DNA from: Catajapyx aquilonaris
Lineage: Eukaryota
Reading direction: 5' to 3'
Assembly: GCA_000934665.2 (NCBI GenBank)
Contig: JYFJ02004289.1
Span: 1 to 33,313 of the forward strand
DNA length: 33,313 nt
Under the pieces are notes generated by a model that searched no databases, was not told where the DNA came from, and saw nothing but the letters and a program-made list of their open reading frames with translations. A program made the position numbers and the translations under genes. Below, one piece after another: positions 3,300 through 28,200 of the stretch (its first letter is position 1; every line of letters starts with the position of its first letter).

Positions 3300-6125
3300 A
3301 GATATTAACGGGGTTATTCCAGACCATGTAGGTCCTTTAACCCCGGGCCGCACATAGGGCCTATATCATCACTCTAAGTCCCTTTCATCGTGGTCCGCCA
3401 GGGGCGGACCACCCGTTCGCTTCCGAATCGAACCCAAGCCGTCATAGGGTCGACACTCGACCATCGGGACGACTCCACAGAGGAGCCGTCCGTCCCACGA
3501 TCGAGTCCCGAACCCGTAAGGTCCGGAGCTCGCCCCAATCCCGTCCGACAGGCCTCTTGACTTCTGCCTGGTCACCCAGGCCTCCGTCGAGCCCCAAAGG
3601 GAAAGGTCCCGTCGGAGAAATCGGGGCCCGCTCCGGACCCCCGTCATGTCCCACCTGTGGGACCCCAGCCACAGTCTGTCATCGCCTCTGCGTCTCACTC
3701 CTTCTCCTACTTTATCCTCGGCTCCGACCCGCGTAACTTTCATCGTCCCCGGTGTTCCCCGCGACGACCGCCGCCCCGACCACCGGCAACACCCACTCTG
3801 TCGTCGTTGACACTCGCCAAGTGCCGTATGACTGCCTGGCAGAACCTGTTGAACTCGTCCGGCAGACAAGACAACAGCACCTCCCCGGAGCAAGGCCAGC
3901 CGCACCCGCTGCAGACTGCGTCCCTCAAAAGGGCCGCCCGCGCCTGCTCCACCTCCGGTAGCAGACAGTCCAGCAGGACGTGCGATGCGTCCTGACAACC
4001 CCCACCGCACGGACATGCGCCGCACCCGTCCGACAGCAGATGAAACCTCTCCAAGTAGGCCCGGAAGGGGCCGTGGTTCACCAGGATCTGGGCGACGTGT
4101 CCTCTCCAAGTCCGGCCGACGACCACGTTCGGGAGAAACTCCCTCGTCCACGTACTACCTTCCCGCTCCCATTCCTCCTGCCAAAGCCGAATGCCCTCCA
4201 GATGCCAATGTGCAGCGATGCCCCGCCGGTGCTCCCCCAAATAGAGGTGCCCAGTCTGCCGCTCAGTCGCAGCCTTAGCCGCCTGGTCCGCCAACTCGTT
4301 TCCGAGTGTCCCGACATGCGCTCGGACCCAGCCCAGGCGGACATGGGAGCCCCGGGGACCCCGCAGCGCACTCTGAGCGCGATCCACCCCCGGCTGCAAG
4401 GCCCAAGGACTGGCAATGGCCTGCAGTGCCGAAGCTGAGTCCGAGAAGACCCAGGTACGGCCGTCGCCGATCGGTCCCTCCCTAACCGCCGCCTCCACCG
4501 CTCGCACCACCATCTCCAGCTCAATATCAAAAATACACGTGCCTCGGACGAAAGGGAGGCTCTCCACCGCCACCACCTCCTGGGGACCCACCATCCTCAC
4601 CATCGCTCCTCCTGCCCCATGGCTCATGACGGATCCATCAGTGAAAATCACCATCCCAGCGTCGACTGGCCACCCTTCCCACGTCGGGACGTTCATCCTC
4701 TGCCAAGTCCAAGGCGCCGGAAGCGCCCCAGGGGCCACCGGACGGGGTGTCGTGCCGTCCTCCAACTGTCTGAGAAGTTGCTGCCTCGCCTCCCAGGCGG
4801 TCCGCGCCAGGATATCCGGAGGAACCACGCCCGCCAGAACGAAGAGAGCGTTCGTCGGTGTTGTCCGGTAAGTGCTGGTCATGGCGAGCAGAAAAGGACG
4901 CAAGGCCCTCCGCAGATGTTTTTGGACGCCCAGAGCCGAGGCACCTCTGCCCCACACCTCCGAACCGAACAACAGCATCGGCAAGATCGCCGCTTTCAGG
5001 ATAACCCCCCTGCTCCTAGGCGACAGTCCCCAGTTGGCTCCGGCCACCCGCCACACCCCAGCGGCGACTCTCCTGACCACAGACGACACCCGCCGAGCAT
5101 GGGGCGCCCAGCTAAGGACCGAGTCTACCTGCACCCCCAGGACCCTCACATTGGTGGAGAATTTGACGACCCTGCCGCAGAGCTTGATCCACGGGGGTTG
5201 AGGAACTTTCCGCCCTGGCGTCCGTGGATGGACCATCACCCCTGCTGTCTTTCCGGCGTTATACTCCAAGCCGAGGTCCGTCGCCCAGGCAGGTAATCGG
5301 TGTTCCAACTGCTCCCAGAGCCTCTTCAACTCCGCCGGTGTGGCCCCCTCCAAGACCACCACCTGGTCATCCGCATAGGCCTGTGGATGGTACCGAGTAA
5401 CGTCCAAGTCTCGGAACAGGTTGAACCAGCAGTCCATGGCCACTATCCACAACGTGGGTCCAAGGCTGCTACCTTGCGGACAACCCCGATCCATGGTGTA
5501 CCGCCTCCCATGCAGCAAGATGTCCCTCGGCCCCAGGAAACCACGGATGATGCGCTCCAGCCTGGGTGGGCAGGCTCGCTCCCTCAGAGCGGAGACGATC
5601 CGTCCGTGCAAGACGCTGTTGAAGGCGTTCCGGACGTCCAAGGTGAGGACCAACGCCAGTTGACCTCTTGCCACCACCGAGTGCAACCTCCCCACCAAGC
5701 ATTCCAACGCCTCCACCACTCCGCGTTGCCTCCTGAAGCCGAACTGACGTTCATCCAACCACCCATCCCGCTCCATGACGTAGGCCAGTCTGTTGTTAAC
5801 GATCCTGTCTAGGACCCGTCCCAGGGCCGGAGCCAAACAGATTGGTCGAACGCCTCCATCCTGTCCCTTGGGGATCCAGGCCAGCCGGCACCTCTTCCAC
5901 GACGACGGGAAGACTCCCTCGTCGTACAGGCGTCGCAGCAGTTCCAGCCAGTACTCCGGAACAGCGTCCAGAATCTGCTCCAGACAGACCAGCGGCAAGT
6001 TCTCAGGCCCAGGCGCCTTGTGCGGAGACATCCCCCTCACCACCTCGTGCAGCTCGGCGACGGCAAGCGGAGGCTCCAAGTCCCTCGACGAGAGAAGGCA
6101 CCCGCCTTCCTCGATGGTCTGCGAG
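3300..6125 (-). mobile_element. 5'-truncated non-LTR retrotransposon (R1/LOA-like clade, RNase H-containing)
   Basis: Abrupt GC-rich block in AT-rich flanks. It contains the RT-RNH-CCHC ORF plus a GC-rich 3' UTR of roughly 400-450 nt. There is no APE endonuclease or ORF1. The 3' boundary is approximate, and no poly(A) or TSD was seen. Confidence 0.88.
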
Positions 6126-6145
6126 GAAAAAATTACTACATTCAA
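3740..6145 (-). CDS. Retrotransposon ORF2 fragment: reverse transcriptase + RNase H + CCHC zinc knuckle
   Basis: 801-aa open frame with KAPGPE, RPICL, QFGFR, LDVRNAFN, GCPQGSSLGP and YADD (5366-5377). R1-type NWGL...GSEVW and YRTTPTNALFVLAG follow. RNase H motifs: FTDGS (4631-4645), FSDS, WVRAHVG.GNELAD. Knuckle CPC-x8-H-x4-C at 3965-4015. The first ~7 codons are probably flanking DNA, so the start codon is not genuine. Confidence 0.95.
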   Translation of the reverse strand: MNVVIFSSQTIEEGGCLLSSRDLEPPLAVAELHEVVRGMSPHKAPGPENLPLVCLEQILDAVPEYWLELLRRLYDEGVFPSSWKRCRLAWIPKGQDGGVRPICLAPALGRVLDRIVNNRLAYVMERDGWLDERQFGFRRQRGVVEALECLVGRLHSVVARGQLALVLTLDVRNAFNSVLHGRIVSALRERACPPRLERIIRGFLGPRDILLHGRRYTMDRGCPQGSSLGPTLWIVAMDCWFNLFRDLDVTRYHPQAYADDQVVVLEGATPAELKRLWEQLEHRLPAWATDLGLEYNAGKTAGVMVHPRTPGRKVPQPPWIKLCGRVVKFSTNVRVLGVQVDSVLSWAPHARRVSSVVRRVAAGVWRVAGANWGLSPRSRGVILKAAILPMLLFGSEVWGRGASALGVQKHLRRALRPFLLAMTSTYRTTPTNALFVLAGVVPPDILARTAWEARQQLLRQLEDGTTPRPVAPGALPAPWTWQRMNVPTWEGWPVDAGMVIFTDGSVMSHGAGGAMVRMVGPQEVVAVESLPFVRGTCIFDIELEMVVRAVEAAVREGPIGDGRTWVFSDSASALQAIASPWALQPGVDRAQSALRGPRGSHVRLGWVRAHVGTLGNELADQAAKAATERQTGHLYLGEHRRGIAAHWHLEGIRLWQEEWEREGSTWTREFLPNVVVGRTWRGHVAQILVNHGPFRAYLERFHLLSDGCGACPCGGGCQDASHVLLDCLLPEVEQARAALLRDAVCSGCGWPCSGEVLLSCLPDEFNRFCQAVIRHLASVNDDRVGVAGGRGGGRRGEHRGR

Positions 6146-6470
6146 TTTGTCACGTAACTATGTTATCTACCATAGAGTAACATATGTGACGGGCTTGGTA
6201 ACAAATGTGAATGATGACACCTATTATGCCATAAGGCAGAACAGCCTAACATCTGTTTGATTTCATCATCGCAGCCGCATATTCGTAAGTACCCATGACT
6301 GTTCCCTATTATTGTCACCAACAATAAGCAACAGCTATGGTTGTGATGGATGTTATATATGGTGCTTAATAATACGCCAAAGTCGTGGGCCGTGCGTGTG
6401 AGTATGTTTTCCCAACAGCAGATACTATGTATGGCATCAAATAGAAGTTAGGCTGTTCAGCCTATAATAT

Positions 6471-8360: not shown

Positions 8361-9712
8361 TATAATGAGCTATTCACGGGTTTTAATGAACGACTGTACA
8401 TACTGTATTATACTTTAAATAATATTTAATCAAAATTAGAAAAATTTCCAAGATTTTTAGTTCGTCTTCTGGAAAAAGTCTGTTATATTTCTTTCTTTGA
8501 GAAAAATTGGAATTTTTCCGGACTTTTCACTGTTTTAGCCATGCACGGATAATCGGGAGTACAGTGTGTATTTCATTTCATTTTCATTTTTATTTAAAAA
8601 TTTTGTCCACCCTACTTGGATGACGTATCAGTTGGAACCAGTAAAACCAGCGATTTTTTTCGAGAGGCCTACTTGGTGCAGGGTTTTTCAAATTCTACGT
8701 AACAACAAGATGTGGACTAGAGAAGACAAAATGCCAGTTCATGCAAAATCAGGTTGATTTTATAGTATTCAGGGTATCTAAAGAGGAAAATAGTACGTGG
8801 GATTTACAGTGTGATTGCAACAAAAATATTATACTGTAGGAACTTGATCACTCTTGTGATCACTACTTATGCAATACTTTATGTATCACCGTAATAACAT
8901 TTTAACTGAATTAACATAGGCTACATGAGCATTTCAGTAGGATTAGGATGTACGATTAAAACATTGATTCGAATGGAGAAGAATGCTATTAGAAACTTTT
9001 CCTCGTGATAACTCATGCAGACATACTTGCAGGTTTCATCTACACAGCATTATCAACAGTAGTTACCGACTTACCGTTCAACCGAAATTCGATAAAAAGT
9101 TAGAGAGGATGGGGCTCGGGACATGAAGGAAGGGAAGCATGAAATCATGGGATTGGTATTTTTTGGGTAAATTTAAAAACTCTGCATTTCTTTCACGTAT
9201 ATGTGTGAAAAAATCGGTAGCGGGTGTGAGCATTTCGGAATCGGGAAAAACGTCCAGTGCGAACGCAACTGTATGTTTTAAACCTACCTGAATGATTTAT
9301 GGGACAACCGGAAATCTGACCGCTTTTTACGATAGTGATGAAGCTGGCGATGATGACAGAACTTGGAAGAACTGCTGGAACTGCAACTGCAAGCTCCTAG
9401 AAGGAAATTATCATCCCATTTGCCCTTTCATGCTCCTAAGTAGTGACGACATTGTCCACGAGATGGCGAAACCTTTGCCTCCCCCCTCAAATTGACGATA
9501 ATATCCGGGGTCTTGATTCGCCGGGATTGCCGGCACCCTTCAAACTACAAAAACACTATAGAGAAAACTTTTTACAGATCCACTATGCCGCGAAGGTATA
9601 CTGCAAACATTTCCCCATCTTTCCCATTTCTGGACTTGCAGTATCAAAGGCGTGGCCCTTGACGTCACACACGGTTGGCTTATACCAAACGTTTGATTAC
9701 AAGTAATGAAAC

Positions 9713-12270: not shown

Positions 12271-15200
12271 TTAAATTGGTCGCCAAAATATTACACATCT
12301 TGTATAGTAATGATCGTGCATGTTTTTCAAAGTATGAATAGTGTATTTTCTGTAATACTAACATCTCTCCGTATACGCATGCGTGAGGCTTCCGCTTATC
12401 ACTGTCAAGTTTACAGCGGTTTATTTTATGCTATCTATAACCTACACCAATGTCCATCCGTAGATTGCATATAGGCTAAGCCTTCCGCAATTGCCAAAGA
12501 GGCATCAACAAATAACTTGAGTCACAAAAAAACCGGGCTGTATATACCCATCTAAGCAAATGGGAGCAAAAAAGTTTGAAAAATGCTTTCTGCGTACTGT
12601 ACGGCTCGGATTTGATCATGACAGCATGACAGTCACACACACCCATGAAGATAATGCGCCAGTCCTCCATTCACTGAGTAAAAGCCTAGCCTTTAGCTAC
12701 TAAACGATGCGATTTGCTTGAAAAATGTCCCAAATTAAGCTGACGTCAAGACCACTCAAGATCCGGGAAGCTCGTTCATTTATTTGGCATTTAGATGACG
12801 CATCCGCATTTATAACGGAGGCCCTGCTACACACGTATCGTTTGGAAGGGGAACACCCAGTAGAAGAGGGGGGCGCATCTTCTTCAAAAGGCCGAAAAGT
12901 GTTTCGGAGCCCTTATCTAAAACCCTGAATTTCCTCCTTGTCTTATCTCGGCCACCAGTTGGTTCCATTAAACACAGGAGGGTTTTTGCACCCCACCGTC
13001 CTCCATGTGTTTGCTAGGTTTTCACTTTGAACCAGCAGCCTCGATATTTAATATTGGAAGCTCTATTCACGTCAGAGTTGTGGCTTGTCATTACCTCATT
13101 AGGTATTTTCAAATGAGTGAAAGTGGGTGGAAGTAAATATTTTCAGTCTAGCTTTGGGCTTATTTTATTAGGAATGTGTATGTTGGCGAAAGGAGGATTC
13201 CTGGTTTTACGTGGCCGTAACATATACGCATATGTGCAGAGGACCATCAAGGAAGGTATTACTGGCTCCTAAGCATGACGGGGGTTGCGGGGAAGCCTTT
13301 TAGAACTTTCTATCCCCGATCAGTAAGTTATGGCCTTTCCTTGCGGACGTGATGGGATATCGAGATCTAGTCTATATGCTGGGATTTTCGGTAGTCTGGG
13401 TTCTCAAATGTTATTGGTGCTCATCTACGGATTTTGAACACCGTACTCTTACAGTGCATTGTAAAGCTCACATACTTGCGGCAGGCATGTGTGACAGTAT
13501 GTTTGATGCAAATATATTGCCTATTGTATTGAATGGACTAATAATAATTATGGCGATTCAATGAAGCCTACTGTATGAAGAACGCAGAATCAATCCATTT
13601 TCTGGTACAAAAAAGATGATATGGATTCAAAAAGGAAAGCCTGTTCAATATTGTACGGGATTCAGGTGATATATCTCACAGTCACCACTTCGTGTGCAGG
13701 CGAATCATAATTATTAAACGACTAGTAATTGTTACAATACGCGGAAGAATACTAGTTCTCAATTCGGAGAATTCAAGTGCAGTATATGGATTAATCGCCT
13801 TCCTCCTATTTAAACCGCTCAACATTTTTTTCCTGAGAAGATCGTCCACATTTCCTTGAAACTCGTTTTCTGCAACCAGCAGGTAAAACCGGGGTAAAAC
13901 CTGAGATCGATATTTGAAGAGGTATTTTTTTTTGCTTTTAACTCCTTCAAATAAGGAATCTTATTTAGGTGCAGAACTGTGAGAGTTTAACTTCGATTAA
14001 AACTTTCTCGAATGAAATAAGTCTCCTTCTGAATGTCGGAAGAATATGTTGCTGCAGCTGTCACTCACGCAAGACTGTTAGTAGACCCACATTTCGCTCA
14101 TAGAACAGGCCAGGACAAGGTGTTGATGCATGACGTGCTTTGGCGTCAGACCATCGCATCGTAATGAGTATGGCAAATCTTCAACGTGGCTGCTGGGAGC
14201 AATAATAGATGGAATCGACACATTTGGTGCCCAATTTGGCACGTTTCTTCTATAGACCCCCTATAAGTCCTTATGGCCAAAGTATCAAATTGAGCCTGTC
14301 TTTCACTGGCTGAGGGCGACATTTCTTTGGAAAACTTCCAGACGGACATTTCGATCCGTAGTTTTGAAGGAATCCACAGCCTTCGATTTACCACAGACAC
14401 AAACACCGAACTTTCGACATGCAAAACAAATGTCCTAATTAGATTCAAGCCGCACTTCAAATGATCCCAACCCTCTTCGGTAAGCTTAAATGTCCGCAAT
14501 AATCACCTTGGGACCCTCTCCAATAAATTCCCGGAAATGCAATACACGCACACACCATGTCACATCAGCCGTACATCACACATCTTGTTACCTCACCCCC
14601 AACCATTTCCAAGCACCCTTTGCATTCCATGAATGAAACCACAGGGTGCGTGCAAAATAAATTGGGTTGTCCCCTATACTTGAATGTGCAATGAGAGGTG
14701 TAGGACAATTTGAAGGCAACAGAGGTGCGCTAATTGCAACTAGGGAAGCCTTACAATGTAGTCGCCTGAATAATTTATTGGTTCCGAACATGCCCCCACA
14801 ATTTATCCGGGTTCAGGTTGCGACTCTTTACAGGAATTACTCGAGGCAAGACCTTTTCACAGAGAGGTATGAAATGATTCAAAATGTTCAGAGTCATTAT
14901 AATCGCTCATTGGCAATACTAATGAGACGGGGGCAGGGAGTCAAAGGAACCGATATTGGTGACGGAGGTAGGTAAAAACAGTAACGGGTTTGAACTACAA
15001 AAATAAGGCGCATTATTTCAAAGCGTTTCTGTAGCTATACCTTGTCATCTCCGAGCTTTTGTGCGCTTTCAAAAGCTTTGTTATGCCAAGTGCAATATTG
15101 ATTTTTCCTTCCCGCCTCTTTGGAATGAAATTTGAACAACTCCGAAGATGTCAGCTTTAGCACGGTAAAAGGAATGAGTCCGAGGTTTTTTTTGAAGCTC

Positions 15201-15821: not shown

Positions 15822-18295
15822 TATTACCGGTATTAATAAAGTAATAGACTATAGGCCTACTATAAAAATTTATATGCAGGAATGTGGGTTACAATATATT
15901 TTATTGGTCTCTACGTGGTTTTAGCACTATAGTCACGCATATAGTATATACGGTATGCGCTACAATAAGTATTGTCCGTCTTTCACCGGCTTATACCTGA
16001 ATGCCACCCACTCCAGAACGCCCACCACAATAACGGAGTGCAATAATATAAGGGTCGGAAAGACTTGTTATACCTCGCGTAATTTCCGAGACTGCTGTGT
16101 ACGTGCCTCCTGTCATATGCATGACATATGACAACTGCGGATCTTGTCGAGATTCTAATCGACCTCAGTTATCGCGATCCGAAGTGGATGGAATTCATAT
16201 ACGACGGTGAATGGGAGCTGCCTTTGCAAGAAAGATGTACAGTAGGTTATACCAGTTTTGAAACAAAGTAATTCATAGTAATGCAAAGCGTGCATTACAC
16301 CGTAGAAATTTGTCTAACGACAGTCTACGCTGCGACTAAATAAAAAATATTTCACAAGCCTTGTCGAGCGTATCAACACGACACGAAAGGATTGACTAAT
16401 ATTACATCGTTTCAGGAATAGGCCTACATTGTATCACATAATCCTTCATGTAGATAAAATTCTCCTCCATTTAAAGTAGCTTTTAGTTAAAAGCAAATCC
16501 GACGGGCTAATGAATTTTTGCCATTTTAATTGGACACTGACATCTTGTTTGAGCCCATGTGGGAATTACCCAATGAGATAAATAGAATGGGGAGGTTGAC
16601 GGCAGCTGCTTTTGGGGGGTCCAAACGCCGTCCTTCCTCCGCCGCCAGTATCGATTTTGGCCTTCCTATGCGTATTCTATCCTCCCTCCCTCCCTCCCTT
16701 CCTCCCCCTCTTCAACTCCCAATTCACCCCACCCACCCCTGTTCTCTCGCACAGCAACACCGGACGCACATTCCGGGCCTGGCAAGAGAATTCTCAATAA
16801 GCCCAGCAATTTGCCCCATCCGGCAACACCGCAAGACCTGAGCAATATGGCCGCCGCAAAACCCACAGCTTACCCGTCTTGGGACTTATCTACGGTCGCT
16901 TTGAGGTTAGACAAGTTTGGCAAGGTGGTCATTACCATAACTAGAGGCTCATAGAGTGGCACTAAATGACCAAATACCCTAAAGTGATATAAAGCATGTA
17001 GTAAATGTCAAAAGAGCCAAGTATTATTGGAGCCTGGTAACTGGGGCACAAATGTAACGTTACTCCACTTGGGAGATGCAGGACACACAGCGACACACTT
17101 TAATTATTAGGTGGTAGGTGTCCTGGCGAATCTCATTTACGGGTAGTGCTCTCGGGCTGTATTTATGGCTATGGAGGCTATAGATCTTCCTTTGTCGTCA
17201 TGGGAACTATGGTCGAGGGGGGGGGGGGGGNNGGGGCGTGGTCAAATGGGTATCCCTTGGGGATCAAAATGTCCCTTTCTATGTGACTCGCGGGTGGTAT
17301 TTTGTTGGTAGGAGGGCGAACTAAAAGTTGTGTCTCTTCATTGGAGTCTATTGTGATATGCGCATAATCGCATGGCTTTAATAGGCGGGGGTGCTTTTTT
17401 TGACGCCCTTGTCGCTCCGTGTTGGCAAATCAGTCGTGCCCAGCTGTTAGCTTTCCACGCTAATGATCGTTTTTAATATCGCGATTTTGCCACAGTTGGG
17501 CTAAATTATCTTGTTTCGTGCCCCCCCAGGTTCCGCGAACATGTGGCTACTACTATTTTATACGGAGATGCTGCGCGTCATGTTTAGAAACTCATAAAAA
17601 TGGAAGTCACGACCTGAGAGAAGCTGGGGAAAAGGATCCAAAAATAAGATTGGTTGCGGCTGAAACTTTCCTATTTTCTCGTTTACCGGACCACAAAGCG
17701 AGAAAAAACTCCAGATTGTGCACCTTGCATCTTTGATAGCCCCATGTCACTCTTGCTAAATTGCTGTGAAATATTTGATGCCAACAGCCGCTCTCTCTTT
17801 TCGAGCTTCAGGGAGGATACAATACTTCTAGTGTCCTTGGCTGGGAATTCCTAAAATGCAGCAACTGAAAATAGTGCATCCCTATATGATGTAACAACCA
17901 GGGTTGCGGTGGGGACATTGAGCAAATAGTGGCACAGCCTGCTTTCGTGTGTTCCTTCGATGCAATTGGTGCAATGGGACTACTTGTGGCCATGTTGGCA
18001 AAGGGCACCTATGGCTCCAGGAAGAGCTGCTTCGGGACACTGAATAAATAAGAAACGCTCTCCTGCAACAACGGACTACTCAGGGAGCTGGTTGCATAAA
18101 TCAATGCATTATCCAGTTGCAGCGGAGGCGAATGGTATTTATTTTTCGCTCTTAGAGCAAACTAAGAATTTAGAGGCCCAAAATAGCTTTGGTTTTCAGG
18201 AACGTAGCGACTGAAAAGCCTGTGTCAATCATGATGTCGAGTCCATGTTACTGGCAGTAAGTCGACGTAAATGGTCGCAGGAGCACAAATCAAGG

Positions 18296-18659
18296 CACGG
18301 TCATATAAGTAAGGTCTGGTCACTCCCACCCACCCCCTGCCGGGGCGTTTTGCATCGGGCGCTCACCTGAGAGCGCCATGAGACATCTCGAGGCCACGAT
18401 AAGTGGCGACCCTACCGGACTATAGGCTGAACTTTATACATACGAAGGGGAGGGCTACATTGGGGTGCCCAACATGGCCGCCGGCGGCCATGTTGGGCCA
18501 GCATGTAGCCCTCCCCTTTCGTACCTATAAAGTTCAGCCTAATCCGGTAGGGTCGCCACTTATCGTGGCCTCCGAAATGTCTCATGGCGGCTCAGGCGAG
18601 CACCCGCTGCAAAATGCCTCGGCAGGCGATAACGCCAGAACGTAGTATAAGTGTCCGTG
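18296..18659. mobile_element. 364-bp almost fully palindromic element with CACGG...CCGTG termini
   Basis: Arms pair from cctgccgggg (18336) to ggcagg (18626) around the loopless centre catggccgcc|ggcggccatg (18482/18483). Outer imperfect TIR: cacggtcatataagtaaggtctgg / ccagaacgtagtataagtgtccgtg. aatcaagg occurs at 18288-18295 and 18665-18672. Confidence 0.85.
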
Positions 18660-18893
18660 GGCTGAATCAAGGCATAAAATTTTCATGGCGGTTATGGGTA
18701 ACAAGTAAGTAAAGGAACTTCGCGCGGTAAAATCAGTTGTTGCTTACACTCTGGAGTGACAGTCATATGCACATATGTGGTGTTAATGTCATGATAAATA
18801 TTCGGAGCAACGCCATATCAAAGCCACATTTGATCAGAATCATCAAAATGGTCAAAATGGTAACAATATTATGAGATACTCAGAGGTCTAAGC

Positions 18894-19106
18894 CAGTGGT
18901 TCACAACCTTTTTCGGGTCGCGACCCCCTTTTATGATAGTCAAGTAACCTGCGACCCCCCCTCCNCGAGTGTTAGAAGGCGTTGAAAAAACCTTCGCGGT
19001 TAAATTTCCTGTATATATTTTTTTGATTTCTTTTAAAATTTTAGTAATTTTATAATTTATAAAAAATTACCTCGGCCACGCGCGACCCCCAGGTTGGGAA
19101 CCACTG
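18894..19106. mobile_element. hAT-Charlie-type MITE (213 bp)
   Basis: TIRs cagtggttcacaacct / aggttgggaaccactg, subterminal gcgacccc motifs, and a perfect 8-bp TSD gtctaagc (18886-18893, 19107-19114). Confidence 0.92.
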
Positions 19107-19114
19107 GTCTAAGC

Positions 19115-19575
19115 CATGGTCCTTAGGATAGTAAGGTCTGGACACTCCCTCTCTTATCGCCTTAGGCTTAGGAGCCTGATGGGGTGGTTTGCGGCAGGTA
19201 GTCGCGTGATAGCGCTTTTTAGGCGCGAATTGACATTTGCGACCCTACCGGACTGCTCTGAATTAGTAGAAAAGAAGTGCTTCTCTTCTACCTAAGTTCA
19301 GAGCAGTCCGGTAGGGTCGCCAAATGTGATAGCGCTTTTCAGGCGCAGATTGACATTTGGCGACCCTACCGGACCGGGTGAGCCTTAGACCATGGACTTA
19401 GAATAGTACGGTCCGGTCACTCCCCTCGTAACGCCTTAGGGGCCTGACGGGGTTTTCGGCAGGTGGCCGTCTTAAAAGCCGAAACCTGCCGAAAACCACC
19501 CCGTCAGGCCCATAAGGCGTTAAGAGGGGAGTGACCGGACCGTACTATTCTAAGTCCATGGTCTAAGGCTCACCC
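19115..19575. mobile_element. Composite multi-hairpin element with CATGG...CCATG termini, related to 18296-18659
   Basis: 19115-19199 is inverted to 19484-19560 and direct to 19391-19464. Hairpins at 19233-19327, 19306-19374 and 19376-19575. Flanks are gtctaagc (19107-19114) and gtctaagg (19561-19568). Confidence 0.8.
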
Positions 19576-19652
19576 ACGAGGGGAGTTACCGGTTAACCCC
19601 CTTCCCCGAGAGAAAAAACGATGAAAAAAACGGGGGGAAACCCTCTAGATAA

Positions 19653-19720
19653 CAGTGCTTTCCAAACTGTGGGTCGCGACCCCAAATGGGGTGGCGAATA
19701 TAATATTTGGGGTCGTGAGG
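19653..19720 (+). mobile_element. 5' end fragment of a second hAT-Charlie-like element
   Basis: cagtgctttccaaactgtgggtcgcgacccc...tggggtggcg...tggggtcgtg. No matching 3' TIR was found. Confidence 0.65.
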
Positions 19721-20065
19721 GAGGGTAACTAGTTATTTTTTAGAAATAACATTATTGATTTTATCTCTCTGGAAAAATTTGCCCGTAAACGAGATCGAAG
19801 AACCGCTAATGATGGCAACATTGAGGAATTGTTTGTGAACATGCAGCGAAAAAACCTAAGCAGAACGCCTTTCAAGTGTGCATGCAGATCTGAAATTGTT
19901 ATTAATCTTCATGTCCTGCAGTAAGCTTTCATGCTATCCCTTCTGTTGTGTATTGTCCAGATTAATGATAATACGTGCGTTCATTAAGGAAATATCTGCA
20001 AACAGTCCATTATTTGGGCCTGTACCTGGTAGTCAAAACAGTAGTGCATCTTAGGGACTCAAGAA

Positions 20066-20890
20066 ATGCAAAAGAGTGCTGAAGATACTTTCTCTGCTGC
20101 TTTCAAAAGTGCCAGTAAGGATGCTTTGAAACTTGAGATTCCAATAATAAAACCAAGAACAACCAGCAGTCAGACCATGCTGAGCAAAATTCCTGCAAAC
20201 AGCATAGAGGACTACTATACAAGAGATCATTATACACTATATACGGTATAGTATACACTATACAGTATATCCCTTTCCTCAATGCTTCAATTTCCTCATT
20301 TCAATCAAAATTTACAAAAATTAAAAATACCTTACAGCCATTTCAATATCTCCTTTCCGATGAAGCTGGCAGAAGATAGAATGTTGTTGATTCTTTTAAA
20401 AATCTTGCATATTTTAAAGGCCTGAGTGGCAGAATCGAAGGTGAGCTAAAGCCTTGCCATCAAAGTTTGTCTTCGGCTTCAGTTAAGCCGAAGAGTGGCA
20501 CAAAAGCCATTCCAATGCAACGATAAATATTGTTCCCAGTCATCAGTATAGGCTAAGCTTCTCCAAATAATGGCAACACTGCCAGTAACAACTTGTAGGG
20601 TACTGCAGAAAGGTCTTTCTCAACTCTATAAAAGTGCTCAAAACTTAGGAATAGTAGGCCTAATAGTAGCCCTACCGGCGAGGAAAGACCCAATAGACTG
20701 GCGCTGATGTGCTATATCACTCAAAAAGATAAAGACGATTTTCACCATTTTGCATTTGATTTCAATGCAAAATAATTGCTTCCATCGTTTTCAGCGAAAC
20801 AGTACAATCATTGTAACCTATACACTTACGGTATGTAATGAAGAAGTGCTAGATGATCTGGCCGACTAACCAAGGAAGCTAGACAGTAGA
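20066..20890 (+). pseudogene. Decayed hAT transposase C-terminal half with hATC dimerisation domain (THAP12/P52rIPK-like lineage)
   Basis: Reconstructed across frameshifts: QKSAEDTFSAAF...IKPRTTSSQT...PANSIEDYYKRSLYIPFLN...EGELK...LFPVISKLLQIMATLPVTTCTAERSFSTLKVLKT...STGEERPNRLALM...EEVLDDLA. It has several stops and frameshifts. Confidence 0.88.
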
Positions 20891-21900: not shown

Positions 21901-24795
21901 ATAGCCGGTTTTTGGTGATTTTGGAATAATATTATAAGGGTTTGTGGATTACTCTCAGTAATTTGTGAGATTTTCTATGATTGTGTGTCATTTACTGTAT
22001 GATTGAATATTACTGGGGTAGATAGTATAGTTTATTGTAGCAAACTGATGGCCGCTTTTTAAATTTGTAGGCTCATTACAATATTATCTGTAAGAGACAA
22101 TTTCTTTTGGGAATCACACCAATTTACCTTTCCTTAAAGCTTCCAAGCGCAAATTCCTCTGCATACCCGTTACATTATCTAAAATATAGGCTTTCAATGG
22201 GTTCTATAAGGATATTTTCAACTCAAAGGGTTGGTTGCGAGATTGACATTAATACTGTCGTTAATCAAGAGTACGTGGGCGATCCTTGTTAGGGCCTCGG
22301 CGCTGGCATTCCATCACGTCTGTAAATCCGAGCGCAAAAATTCAGGAGTGTACACTGCTGGATTTCCCCTGACATAAATCTGAGCCGACTTTTGGGACAC
22401 ATGCATATTGTCCCCTATTGTCCTCTCGTATTGATCTCTGTACCCTCAAAATCACCCGATCCCTGATAACTGCGCTTACACAAGTTGATCAGGGATCCCT
22501 CTCCCCTACACCCAGCCTCCCGCCTGACACCTTTCGCATTTTGAAGTTTTTCTCGGGGTATGCTTCTGAAATGTCAAGGATCACGTCTGATTGTCCTACC
22601 CATCACAATAATGTATAAAGGGAACTTACATGCTGGCTTGCTTCGAAACCAAATTAAATGTACAGCATTGATGACACATTTATGTAGGTTTAATTCGGTA
22701 TTAAAAACTCGAATCCCGATAAGATGGGATTATGTAAACTAGTCTAGACGTGTTACTTAATGGGGCGATGACCGTTTTACGTGAGGGAAGCTCGCGAAAT
22801 TGCCTGGCCGTGCCCACCCTTTACTTCATTACTGTATACTGTACGTAAGCAATTCAGTAAAGGCCCTTGATTACGGGAAACGTCAACAGGTACGAACAAA
22901 TCCACGAGAATTAATGTGGCTAAGTCGGAGCAAAGAGATTAATATGAATGTTTTAGATTGTGAAATACTTCAGGTGAATATTGATGGCGTATGACTTGCA
23001 ACTATTGGAATGAGGTGGAGTGTAGGCGATTGTGTGGGGTTGTTGAGGATTTATCTTTTATGTCATTTTTCTTGAAAGAATACGCCAGGTTTTTACCATC
23101 AGGTCACGCACTTTGGTGATAGCCGCCATTCGAGATATTCTGGTTATAAGTCACCTTGTATAACCCTGTTACACTCCTATTCACATAAGTCTGAACCATT
23201 TTTGGATATCCATACGCCTGAAAGTAGTGCCCCCCCATGTCGCTGTCGGGGCCTATCGCTCCTCACAACAAAATGTGCAGTTTGTGTAGCGCTGCAGCTA
23301 CCGCGCGGGCTACCCATGATAATTAGGCATTCGAATGACACGTACCAGCACGGTTTCTTCGAGAAAGCCAGCGATACCGGGGACTAATTTTGCGGCGGCT
23401 CACCCCCCGGTCGTATGTATATCCAAAAAGGTCCACTCTTATGTGAATCGGAGAGTAATTAATAAGCTGCGGAAGTTACCCGAGATATTAACTAGTCTCT
23501 CACTTTTTGAGAAGCCTGACTGACACTGGTTAGCAAAAATTAATGAACGGTGCTGTTACTGAAACTTTGCATTTCTCNCCCCCCCCCCCACAAGGTCACA
23601 CTTTTAAATATTGCAATAATGTGTCATTTTGTACGTTAAGTGTCACCTCTTCATCGCTGACGCGCTCTTTAGGGAAATGTGGAAGATTGATATTGAAGTT
23701 GTGCATAACCCTGTCACTTCACAGTAATTACTGCAATTACAATCAACATTATTTGTACAACTAACCCGCGCCTCCTCTTTCCAGCCTGACTTAATAGGAT
23801 AATCATGTTCATACCAGGGCAATTTTCCAAGGTCCAGTGTTGCCACTTGTTGAGAAGTACCATACAGTAGATTGTAGATTGATGAAGCGTATGATGCAGT
23901 GGGCGGGGTTGGGGACTGGGGACATCGGGCAGGGAAAGAGTGAGGCAGAGGGAAGCGGTGAATAATTTCGTTCGTCCTTTTACATCATGCCCTGGCTTAG
24001 GTTGGAAAGACAGGCAGTGGCTTTCACAAGCCATCGACTCCGACAAGGAAGCTTATCCTCCGCTCTTTGAACAAAGGAGTATTGATGTATGGACACTATG
24101 TATGTATAGCTAGGCGGAAGATCGAACTCGTCAAGGGTGATGGCTATACTCATTAATAATGATAATATGATTCTTCTGCAATAATAGCTTGGCAACTGAA
24201 ACCAAACAAAACTGTCATTTAAGTAGAATTAAATTACACGGGGCTTGTACTAATGTGTCTATTAATAACGTGTAATTACTACGTAAATGAGACACAATCC
24301 TGATAGAAGATGAGGAGGAAGATGTTGTAAATGGACTTTTTTAGAGTCGGTAAATTCTCTCGCATGTTAATTTATCTGGATATGACATCAGGAGGGGTTA
24401 ATGCATGTTTTATATAGTTCATAACTTCAAAATGATATGTCAATTTATGGACAAAATAAAGTGGAATTTGATGTTCATGATAATGTACTGTGGCACTGTT
24501 GACATTAGCGGTTAAGGGGAGCCGCAGAATAATTTATTTATACCGAAGATGTTACACTGTACCCATGCAGTATCTGGTAAATGAAAGCTGGTTCTCTTTC
24601 AAAAGGGTGGCAATCCGCAATATACAGTAAATACTTCGGGTTTATAAGTGTAAACCTATATTATACTGAATGTTGCAGAAGATTATGAGATTATTTCAGT
24701 AGCCTATCTAATGGATGAAAAATGTTACACGTCATTATAAAAGGGGAACTGGAAAAATGAGAAACATTTCTAGAGCTCATAATACATTCATGCAA

Positions 24796-24844
<49 letters not shown>

Positions 24845-24864
24845 GTAGTAGTAATAATAATAAT
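24796..24864. repeat. (AAT)n microsatellite with AGT interruptions
   Basis: Directly visible tandem repeat. Confidence 0.95.

Positions 24865-25143: not shown

Positions 25144-25209
<66 letters not shown>
25144..25209. repeat. (TAT)n microsatellite
   Basis: Directly visible tandem repeat. Confidence 0.95.
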
Positions 25210-25210
<1 letters not shown>

Positions 25211-28200
25211 AGACAAGAGCCTCTTTTGTTCGACATGCATCTCAATTAACAGGGGTAAAGGTCGTGGAGCACGAGCCTGTGGTTAAGTAACCATCCAGGA
25301 TGAGGCACTGATGGAACCAAAATGTCAACTTTCTAGGTTTTTCCTTCCCTTCTCTCCCGCTTTTTCTCGCCCTGCAATAGTTCCTGTCAGAAGGCCAAGT
25401 GAAAAATGGGCGCCTGTGCCTGGAAGCCCGGTTCCCCTTTGTTCTATTCTACCCATTTCACTCCGCTATTATCACACTGGCCCCCTACAAAAATGATGGA
25501 CCGCTCCAAAAGAGGTAATGGCACGAAACGTAAAATGGATTACATCTGCAGTTTTTTCTTTATCCCCAAAGCTCCTCCCTCCTGCCCAAAACAGCACGAA
25601 GGCGGCTATTTGAAAATAGAAAAAAAGTGTAAGTTTTTTGACCTTAGACCTGGTCGTGAATAACATTTCTTCATCTGAACTTTTTCCTCTCCAAATGAGC
25701 GCTGACATGAATGAATACACCTTTTTTTTCCACCACAGGATGTAAAAGTTTTGCGGGTTATTAGAGGCGAGGTGTGCGAGCGGATGAATAATTAGGCGAG
25801 GTGTGGTAGGTATATATTTGCATGGGGAGTCCCAGGCAGCCGATGATCAGATGGAGCGAGCGATGCGTTAGGAATAAATAATTGAATAACACCTGTGCGT
25901 CGGTGGCGTGCATTTTCTGGCTTCGATATTGCTTAATAAGGCATGGGACCAAACCGCCAAGGATTCAAAACAACATGCTTGCATTAAATTAAAAGCCTGG
26001 AACCGCAAGCCGCGGTTCGACAATGAGCAAACATAGTGCGCTAATGGTTTCAGCGAGAGGAAATTGCCCATATAGTCATGCGGCCAAATAGTTATGGGCA
26101 TTACATTTACCGATTTTTATGGTATTGCAAACAGGAGAGCTTCCTTCTAGGAGTTTACAGTGGATTGTGTTCACATTGCGAGGGATTTTACAACTGCAGT
26201 GGAATAGAAAAGTTTACCTCCTTTTGATATGGTGGGGCAGTTACAGAGTAGTCTAGTTGGGAGTTTCAGCCTAGTTCCTTTGTTGTTAACGGCGTCACTA
26301 CCGCCATTTTGATGAACCTGCCGGATACACAAAAACTCGTCACTCGGGGGAAAGAGTGGGTATTTATCACTGCTTTTATATGAATGGCAAATGCGTTGTC
26401 AAATTTTATTAATAATTTCGTTGCTTATAACCAAGGATTTGGTGTGCATTTGGGGGCGAAAGTGTTCCGCAGTACTCGGTGCAAATTCAGCTGAAATGCA
26501 TTTTAGTAGGATACATATAGGCCGTTACAGTGAGAGAACGTAGACATTTTGGCGTCCCTTTGTTCGCATAATTCCTGTAATATAGGCCTACGCAAAGAGC
26601 TTATACTAGGAAGAGTGGAAAAAACGGTTTCCAAGCGTCGCTACTTTTTGGCCAGTTGTTTGGCCAACGTGTTTTGCTGTTAGCTCACTACGCGGCGCCA
26701 CGGTCGAGTGCTGTCGAGAAGAATTTCAATAAAATGTGTGTATTTAATATCAAGAGGCACATAATTAAGAGTTATAAATCTAAAAACTGACCAATATGAG
26801 GTCGTATGGGGTTAAGGAACTAATTTTGGACCCGAAACTGATATTCGACGCAGCTTGCCACCCTGCACCTAACAATCCAAATAATCACCTCGTTGCTTAG
26901 AAATCACGTTCGAATTTTGAAATGGAACCAGTTCCAAGGCCGGCATAGTGGGGCGTAGACGATCGGGGGTTGGGTGCCGAGTGCTACTACTGCTGTTCGC
27001 GCACGGGGTCTCGGATCGCATTATTTTTATTACCAAAGGACCCTCCACGGCTCTCGAGTTCACGGTATAGAAGAACAAGCCCGTCCCGCCACAAGATGGA
27101 CATAGCAGCGGGGGGTACATCTTCCTGTCATGACCATGTTCAGCATCATGACCAGTGTGTACAGTAGCCTACCGTGGTGTGTATTGTATAGCGCAGAGTG
27201 TGGGATTATTGTAGTGGCAATAAACTTCTGGCAAACAATTTGCTTTTCGTGATGGTATTCTATTCACAGGTCTTATACATCGTGTTTTGTCGTCAATTTT
27301 TACACCAACGAGAGTATACGAGTGCTTATAGCTTATTTCCAACCTCTGGGGCTTTTATTGCCATATTTCCGGCACTGCCTCGATCTACCGTATTGTACAA
27401 TACAGTATCGAGTTTCGCTGTCGACTCGCCAGGTGGCAGGTCAGTCGATTGGCGACACGGTTGCTATGCTACCAGCTGTTTTTTCCACTCTTCCTAGTAT
27501 AAGCTCTTTGGGCCTACGTATATAAGCTTGCTTAAATACATCAGCTTTTCCATGGGCGACTGGTTGACAAGTTCCAATAAGGTGGAGTTACAAGAATAAT
27601 GTGTTCACTCTGAAAACGTTTTCAGTTATAGGAAAATAATATATTATAAGATTAATGCAATGTACATTTAAGTTAAAATGCTTTTATTTTATTTTTCATT
27701 TTCAATAAAACATTGCGTGTCCTCGTACGTTCAGTCTTCGTCTAACAGGATTAATAAAACACGAGCAAATAAACCACACAAAGCGACCAGTCAGTGGGCC
27801 GTACAGATTCTGCCAAGCCCAATAGAAAGAGTAAAATAAAACAAAGTCACAAGATGATTCAAAACTTTTTTTTGCCAATTCTGAATGAAGAAGATGACTC
27901 GATAGAAAGAATCAGATATTTTTCTCAAAAACATTACGACAACCAGTGTTTAGAAGCCCTAGTACTGTATATAAGTAGGCATGCGTATGCATGTGCCTGT
28001 AGTATGTTCCTATAAAGTATATTATGCCTATCCCAACATTGAAGAGATAGACGTTATTCCCAGATTTCTTGAACACGTACAAAGTATCGGTAACGTTTTG
28101 TGCTTTCAACGTCTTCACTCGCATTACAATGTATAAATACAATAACAACAGACTTTAAACAGTAAAAACGTTGAAGTCATTGAGCCAGCGAGAGAGAGAG

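Follow-up and report, generated by a model that had tools for sequence, protein, structure and literature searches.

Does a dead transposase fragment in the genome of Catajapyx aquilonaris keep a record of other transposons that came and went? The question is raised by positions 20045-20709 of contig JYFJ02004289.1, read here on the + strand within the 33,313-nucleotide (nt) stretch that we call the window. This region consists of six protein-like segments in shifting frames (S1 to S6; Table 1), together with six short inserts that an earlier note had explained by serial insertion and excision by several TA-targeting transposon families, with new TA targets arising along the way and the sequence growing step by step; this model amounts to about 15 events. 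We consider such a serial history very unlikely. The account that we favour for the whole, at a little short of an even chance, is ordinary pseudogene decay, mostly by local copying and possibly with two or three scars left by TA-targeting elements. In this account, the C-terminal remnant (~220 codons) of an old, probably hAT-type transposase gene would be decaying neutrally, and local copying would supply most of the inserted bases.

Six TA-bounded inserts in a frameshifted fragment

All six inserts described in the earlier note are present, and in 6/6 cases the insert is preceded by TA and ends in TA, the two dinucleotide inserts doing so after sliding within a TATA; these borders are a point in favour of the serial model. 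The coordinates of the segments were worked out by hand from program outputs. It had also been claimed that taking out the inserts is all that is needed to recover the protein. Scripted removal of all six brings S1 to S5 into a single frame, with S6 remaining out of frame and both in-frame stop codons of S2 (TAG, 20377-20379; TAA, 20524-20526) persisting. The reconstruction was thus incomplete: because S6 is out of frame after the removals, an additional shift of +1 or -2, which the note had omitted, is required at ~20643-20646, and the 2-nt overlap of S5 and S6 marks this extra frameshift. Plain decay would explain both the extra frameshift and the two stop codons.

Local duplication within the inserts

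Local duplications make up about 37 of the 67 inserted bases (21 + 12 + 2 + 2). Both +TA inserts are steps from TA to TATA, which are indistinguishable from dinucleotide slippage, and slippage is how they would have arisen. For the 18-bp insert, Tandem Repeats Finder (TRF) gives a period of 12 with 2.1 copies at 92%, and the repeat search returns the tandem pair as a family (D19). The 12-bp tandem copy covers 12 of the 18 inserted bases, the remaining 6 bp having the form TA + 4 nt + TA. This copy is unmistakable, which counts against the serial model, and a 12-bp tandem duplication would be the origin of the block.

The 33-bp insert lies within a TRF array (20231-20269) with periods of 14 and 7. 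An exact 8-nt word begins at 20231 and again at 20252, a repeat that by eye extends to 11 nt, and inverted arms of 14 nt (20239-20252 and 20257-20270) are 93% complementary. The predicted DNA hairpin of the insert (-8 kcal/mol, z -4.27) was matched by one of 200 shuffles, and it extends 3 nt past the insert into the flank. The upstream flank contains an 8-nt word (20214-20221) that is repeated directly at 20257, and an overlapping flank word (20213-20220) is found reverse-complemented at 20246. Words of at least 6 nt from the flanks (±60 bp) cover 25 of the 33 nt. We propose that the block would derive from direct plus inverted copying, by fold-back or template switching, of the adjacent TA-rich 8-nt word, which would explain why it is both tandemly repeated and hairpin-forming. 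A resemblance between the left half of the insert and positions 20819-20838 (score 26, against 20 ± 2.6 and a maximum of 31 in shuffles) is not significant and was discarded.

The serial model can point to the fact that the 33-bp block parses fully into TA-core-TA units, including one canonical TACAGTA. It would, however, have to crowd ~10 events into only 9 bp of the original sequence, as against ~5 in the other 650 bp, and it requires identical, non-canonical TA-CAC-TA scars lying side by side. On the + strand of the window TA-CAC-TA occurs in only two places, both inside this insert, so that a single duplication of ~21 bp, which suffices to produce them, is preferred over two identical independent scars. 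The two large blocks count against serial footprints: the earlier note had itself named tandem duplication of adjacent sequence as the finding that would tell against its stacks, and this is what both blocks contain. Looking for a template adjoining the insert, as left by micro-tandem duplication or template switching, we found one for the 12-bp pair and for the 33-bp insert, and none for the +5 and +7 inserts.

According to Tanay and Siggia (2008, PMC2374710), most short insertions in flies and primates are tandem duplications, either simple or complex, and in some of them the reverse strand serves as template. The tandem copy of 12 bp and the direct and reverse-complement 8-nt words that form a hairpin are of the same kind, whereas the +5 and +7 inserts differ in having no template within 100 bp.

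The 37 demonstrably duplicated bases also favour a history in which transposons play no part: errors of end joining, template switching or replication slippage would have produced all the inserts of this AT-rich pseudogene, and their TA borders would reflect a TA-rich context and short microhomology. This transposon-free history we regard as somewhat unlikely, for reasons that begin with the two inserts for which no template was found.

Table 1. Segments of the transposase fragment and its inserts (window coordinates).
Feature	Position	Strand	Description
S1	20045..20215	+	57 codons, the longest uninterrupted open piece; without family match (Pfam, Atlas)
TATA at S1/S2 junction	20216..20219	+	Frame shift of +2; first '+ta' of the earlier note
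S2	20221..20547	+	Second frame; interrupted by two in-frame stops; includes the 33-bp insert, which keeps the frame
33-bp insert	20235..20267	+	In-frame, TA-rich quasi-palindrome; a neighbouring flank word copied in both orientations
+7 insert	20549..20555	+	TA-bounded, contains TA-GGC-TA; slides by 2 nt
S3	20555..20596	+	14 codons, first frame
+5 insert	20598..20602	+	TA-GGG-TA, the TA + 3 nt + TA footprint architecture
S4	20602..20628	+	9 codons; carries the ER-x-FS-type motif
TATA at S4/S5 junction	20627..20630	+	Frame shift of +2; second '+ta' of the earlier note
S5	20631..20645	+	5 codons, third frame; last codon overlaps first codon of S6 by 2 nt
S6	20644..20709	+	Last conserved-looking block; includes the 18-bp insert (20657-20674)
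12-bp tandem duplication	20650..20673	+	Copies 20650-20661 and 20662-20673; 11/12 identical

The +5 and +7 inserts

The longest matches of the +7 insert to its flanks are 4 nt in direct (P = 0.81) and 5 nt in reverse orientation (P = 0.30), which provides no local template. Taking the +5 and +7 inserts together, the longest flank matches are of 3-5 nt (P 0.30-1.0), and neither insert is locally templated. A duplicated TA bounding extra bases, as in Tc1/mariner footprints, is seen in all six inserts; it is trivial where the insert is a duplication or a TATA step, as in four of them, because a tandem duplication satisfies the TA rule whenever its unit contains TA, and the rule is therefore informative only for the +5 and +7 inserts. 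Of all dinucleotides, 7.0% are TA in the window as a whole and 7.8% within the region, and by our own arithmetic the chance of TA borders is ~0.078 squared for each of the two inserts.

Two non-templated, TA-bounded inserts are suggestive of footprints, not decisive for them, and the +5 and +7 inserts may have this origin. In the account that we favour, these two, possibly along with the seeds of the larger blocks (18 and 33 bp), may be excision scars of TA-targeting cut-and-paste elements. The transposon-free history fares less well at this point, since both inserts have no local template, yet the exact TA is repeated at both borders. The footprint reading put forward earlier is supported in part: the +5 and +7 inserts, TA-bounded and without a local template, are built like Tc1/mariner excision scars, whereas copying of adjacent sequence can explain the 33-bp, 18-bp and both +TA inserts.

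By eye, the +7 insert with its flanks (20545-20556) shares an exact 12-nt word with positions 12468-12479, 8 kb upstream; we estimate the chance expectation for a match of a given 12-mer in the window at ~0.004.

Tc1-type footprint words across the window

The earlier note had predicted a genome-wide enrichment of TA-core-TA words, which we tried on the 33-kb window. The scars published as canonical for Sleeping Beauty/Tc1, TACAGTA and TACTGTA, are accompanied by six shorter TA-bounded forms (10.1101/659086). The two canonical words taken together (TACWGTA) occur at 23 sites in the window, all in unique contexts, against 5.4 (order 3) or 8.5 (order 4) expected, a 2.7- to 4.3-fold over-representation. 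Among all 7-mers of the window TACWGTA ranks fifth, behind only words derived from (AAT)n and poly-C. Its flanks are also distinctive: A stands directly before it in 24/46 flanks (32% at all TA sites) and a pyrimidine two bases before in 33/46 (49% at all TA sites), and a T-purine enriched after it mirrors the pyrimidine-A before. These flanks agree with the published Tc1/Sleeping Beauty target consensus, CAYATATRTG (PMC2577343).

The excess of TACWGTA and its Tc1-like flanks suggest that scars of TA transposons probably exist in this genome, and that they are probably of the Tc1 type. That the most over-represented non-simple 7-mer should occur in unique contexts with Tc1-like flanks tells against the transposon-free history. 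It also suggests that excision scars could be counted genome-wide by k-mer statistics.

Within the window, the predicted enrichment was found for some words and not for others. Besides TACWGTA, it extends to TA-GSC-TA, the core word of the +7 insert and its reverse complement (8 sites against 2.3 expected), and to TA-CSG-TA (6 against 2.1); TACGTA is mildly enriched (10 sites against 5.5). No enrichment is seen in the window for TA-GGG-TA, the word of the +5 insert (2 sites, with 2.8 expected), or for the non-canonical published forms TACATA, TACTA and TATA. The cores CAC and GGG lie outside the canonical footprint rules and are not enriched as TA-core-TA, a result that suits the transposon-free history. 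Control borders other than TA gave no comparable outlier in the window. Hairpin (P-nucleotide) scars of the hAT type were also considered and dropped, the non-TA control borders showing no comparable palindromic excess.

Several other words recur in the window, and two further TA-bounded ones, TAGGCCTA and TACCGGTA, are enriched. The palindromic 8-mer TAGGCCTA occurs six times against ~0.4 expected (at 15852, 16419, 20655, 20961, 24958 and 26583), and all six sites share one ninth base on one side only, so that the unit is a directional 9-mer, unlike a symmetric scar. For TACCGGTA there are five sites (331, 8034, 15749, 15825 and 21509), with ~0.35 expected. A CpG-containing 8-mer, TA-CGG-TA plus one base, is found at 1214, 7771, 15949, 20242 and 20827, with all five copies on the + strand and none on the opposite one; we discarded the idea that these five sites form one family, as their aligned flanks share nothing. 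Finally, four copies of the palindrome TGACGTCA, which we take to be the cAMP-response-element word, lie within 3 kb (9660, 11689, 11794 and 12741; 0.4 expected).

Stacks of TA-core-TA units

When the cores are picked post hoc, the window contains 9 stacks of TA-core-TA units against 1.2 (order 3) or 3.8 (order 5) expected, a count reached in 0/200 simulations under either model, and this supports the serial model. That core set is circular, however: the published Sleeping Beauty set, fixed beforehand, gives 3 stacks, against 0.44 (reached in 1/300 simulations) or 1.4 (order 5, reached in 55/300), and 0/3 of them fall in the region of the transposase fragment. The order-5 result is in line with a transposon-free history.

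Outside the fragment, the canonical scar word stands twice head-to-tail at 22830-22847 and is followed by TA-CG-TA, with which it shares a TA; the arrangement can be read as stacked scars or as a tandem duplication of 7 bp. A comparable pair is seen at 8397-8407. The serial model can cite both as further stacks.

Stacking is not established. The data can do without a serial, self-feeding log: ordinary decay, perhaps with a few footprints of a known type, would account for them. We likewise consider it distinctly unlikely that scars of TA elements are dense in this genome (an excess of ~15 TACWGTA per 33 kb, or ~1 per 2 kb), recreate the palindromic TA-rich targets that such elements prefer, accumulate side by side at hot spots (20231-20270 and 22830-22847, for example), and so add 2-5 bp at a time to neutral DNA, in stacks that local duplication later amplifies.

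Candidate donor elements and internal controls

Within the window we found no resident element with a TA target-site duplication (TSD) and with tips matching the cores, which argues against the serial model and in favour of the transposon-free history. TA-flanked inverted pairs with tips CAG (1457/2504), CCG (19246/19313) and GAC (19386/19565) were rejected as element ends because the inverted repeats continue beyond those TAs, as parts of longer palindromes. An inverted repeat at 1421-1667 and 2337-2540, with arms of ~250 nt that are 92-98% identical, does end beside a TA, with other tips.

Repeat copies elsewhere in the window served as an internal control on the kind of indel that accumulates here. 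The left arm of the 1421-2540 inverted repeat has a 37-bp tandem-repeat expansion that its right arm does not carry, and the arms differ by a further 6-bp low-complexity step. The half-copies at 19100-19210 and 19372-19480 differ by a tandem duplication of 6 bp together with a 3-bp step, and the arms at 18370-18595 by steps of 1, 2 and 4 bp, the 2-bp step lying beside a TATA. An insert of the form TA + 3 nt + TA was seen in none of these indels between copies. That the arm-versus-arm indels are tandem duplications is a further point for the transposon-free history.

An element of 918 bp (26593-27510), with terminal inverted repeats (TIRs) of ~33 nt and 8-bp direct repeats at 26585-26592 and 27511-27518, is a hAT-type non-autonomous element; its insertion site itself carries the TAGGCCTA word.

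Directly upstream of the transposase fragment lies a cluster of nested palindromic miniature elements (18890-19720), which includes a near-perfect palindrome of 200 bp (arms 19376-19453 and 19498-19575, 97%). The upstream protein-like reading ends at this cluster, which probably truncates the N-terminal part of the transposase gene. An internal eliminated sequence of the Paramecium type was considered and dropped, given the animal-type composition and repeat content and the shortness of the units.

Probable identity of the fragment as a hAT transposase

The fragment had been described as encoding the conserved hAT protein, a claim that found no support in searches of Pfam, protein databases, PDB and the Atlas. 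In Pfam, a hAT family was absent from the matches of 6 pieces, from those of 88 + strand open reading frames (ORFs) of at least 35 amino acids (aa) between 13 and 23 kb, and from those of 2 read-through frames at E values up to 10. A further 113 ORFs of at least 62 aa across the window, a set that excluded 28 ORFs overlapping the reverse-transcriptase region, gave nothing relevant and no Tc1/mariner transposase domain. Word-index protein searches with the 92-aa and 52-aa pieces yielded 154 candidates and then 1 candidate, with zero scored, and PDB searches gave 0 chains for the fragment. When the 92-aa part of S2 was put through an exhaustive HMMER search, 4 proteins were hit; all are long repeat proteins that align over 4-9 separate stretches, and we judged them spurious; the best Atlas score (0.80) belonged to a peptide-hormone cluster and was treated as noise.

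The protein database does include transposon proteins from animals, since the reverse-transcriptase ORF of the window retrieved 18 relatives, some of them from beetles and a spider. The failure of the homologue searches with the fragment is to be expected if its conserved blocks are cut to 5-14 residues per frame, and the negative Pfam result counts as weak evidence against hAT membership. The hAT C-terminal dimerisation domain runs from a hydrophobic-Pro strand through an ER-x-FS-type motif, some six residues on, to a Leu-rich helix. This order is visible by eye in S3-S6 once the six inserts are removed, and the ER-x-FS-type motif in S4, returned by none of the searches, is presumably the signature of that domain. 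On the strength of this order, the hAT identification is probably right. No domain of the catalytic DDE/RNase-H-like core was found in the upstream + strand ORFs, and the element ends (TIRs and 8-bp TSD) were not searched for. Comparisons of the region against the window by blastn and tblastx gave self matches only, with no second copy of the fragment, and a local alignment of 19730-20040 with 20480-20780 scored 26, against 23.3 ± 3.4 in shuffles.

The polarity of the insertions and the exact bounds of the indels rest on the expected spacing of the domain, not on a family consensus. One may therefore ask whether the premise itself is off: the family may have had part or all of the 'inserted' sequence from the start, deletions may lie behind some of the frame shifts, or the fragment may come from something other than a hAT transposase. 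The protein went unrecognised in every search, the spacing argument is not a computed one, and the last block is out of frame after the six removals, all of which would fit. Against this, five consecutive segments share a frame after the removals and follow the order of the hAT C-terminus, as chance open pieces would not, and search failures are to be expected when conserved blocks come in pieces of 5-14 residues. We give this possibility little credence.

Points against the favoured account and comparison with known systems

Several results weigh against decay by local copying with a few scars. Taken singly, the matches of the 33-bp insert to its flanks reach only marginal P values, 0.09 in direct and 0.10 in reverse orientation (from 2000 random windows), the local-template match of the 18-bp insert has P = 0.065, and a stack of footprints in a palindromic TA-rich target would look repetitive and hairpin-forming too. 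The TA borders of the two non-templated inserts are not easily put down to chance. The excess of TACWGTA shrinks under an order-5 model, to 23 sites against 17.5. Finally, indel polarity is not fixed for any of the inserts, because neither a family consensus nor a homologue was obtained.

Scars left by TA elements are a known phenomenon. For Tc1/Sleeping Beauty, the published footprints (10.1101/659086) consist of a TA duplication plus 0-3 tip nucleotides, a net gain of 2-5 bp. The TACAGTA in the 33-bp insert is of this kind, the +5 insert corresponds to TA + 3 nt + TA, and the two +TA steps equal the published form with an empty core, TATA. In contrast to those footprints, most cores here (CAC, CGG, GGG, GGC and GGCC) are not derived from CAG or CTG, and most inserted bases copy neighbouring sequence, with no element of matching tips in the window.

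In Triticeae, a single intron site has been reported to see repeated insertion and excision of a Stowaway miniature inverted-repeat transposable element (MITE), which targets TA (Mason-Gamer 2007, PMC1925063), and the serial model can draw on this. There, one TA site was reused and left differing putative footprints, a precedent for a reused hot spot; that case differs from our locus in resting on a phylogeny of filled and empty alleles, whereas we have a single sequence, in which the scars would be stacked side by side within one lineage. Rice provides genome-wide surveys of the excision scars of DNA transposons (Roffler and Wicker 2015, PMC4423477; PMC5023962), which share with the present case the idea that repair after excision contributes measurably to small indels and to sequence diversity. 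Unlike here, the scars in those surveys were polarised between two genomes, with complex patterns, deletions and filler DNA; self-feeding stacks are unreported in the portions of the surveys used.

If the serial log were true, dead repeats would be tallies of transposon visits, and the stacking of footprints would be a form of genome growth in small steps. The picture that is supported consists of the usual slippage and of tandem and fold-back duplication in a decaying transposase fragment, where scars, if any, would be few and of a known type.

Other features of the window

On the - strand, positions 3743-6157 hold an intact ORF of 805 codons with reverse-transcriptase and RNase H domains, in an island of 57-65% GC; it belongs to a retrotransposon without long terminal repeats (non-LTR), and its best database relative is only 34% identical. 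A tRNA gene (Rfam, 39.7 bits) lies at 20-91, also on the - strand. Two microsatellites, (AAT)n at 24796-24864 and (TAT)n at 25144-25209, stand 280 bp apart in inverted orientation.

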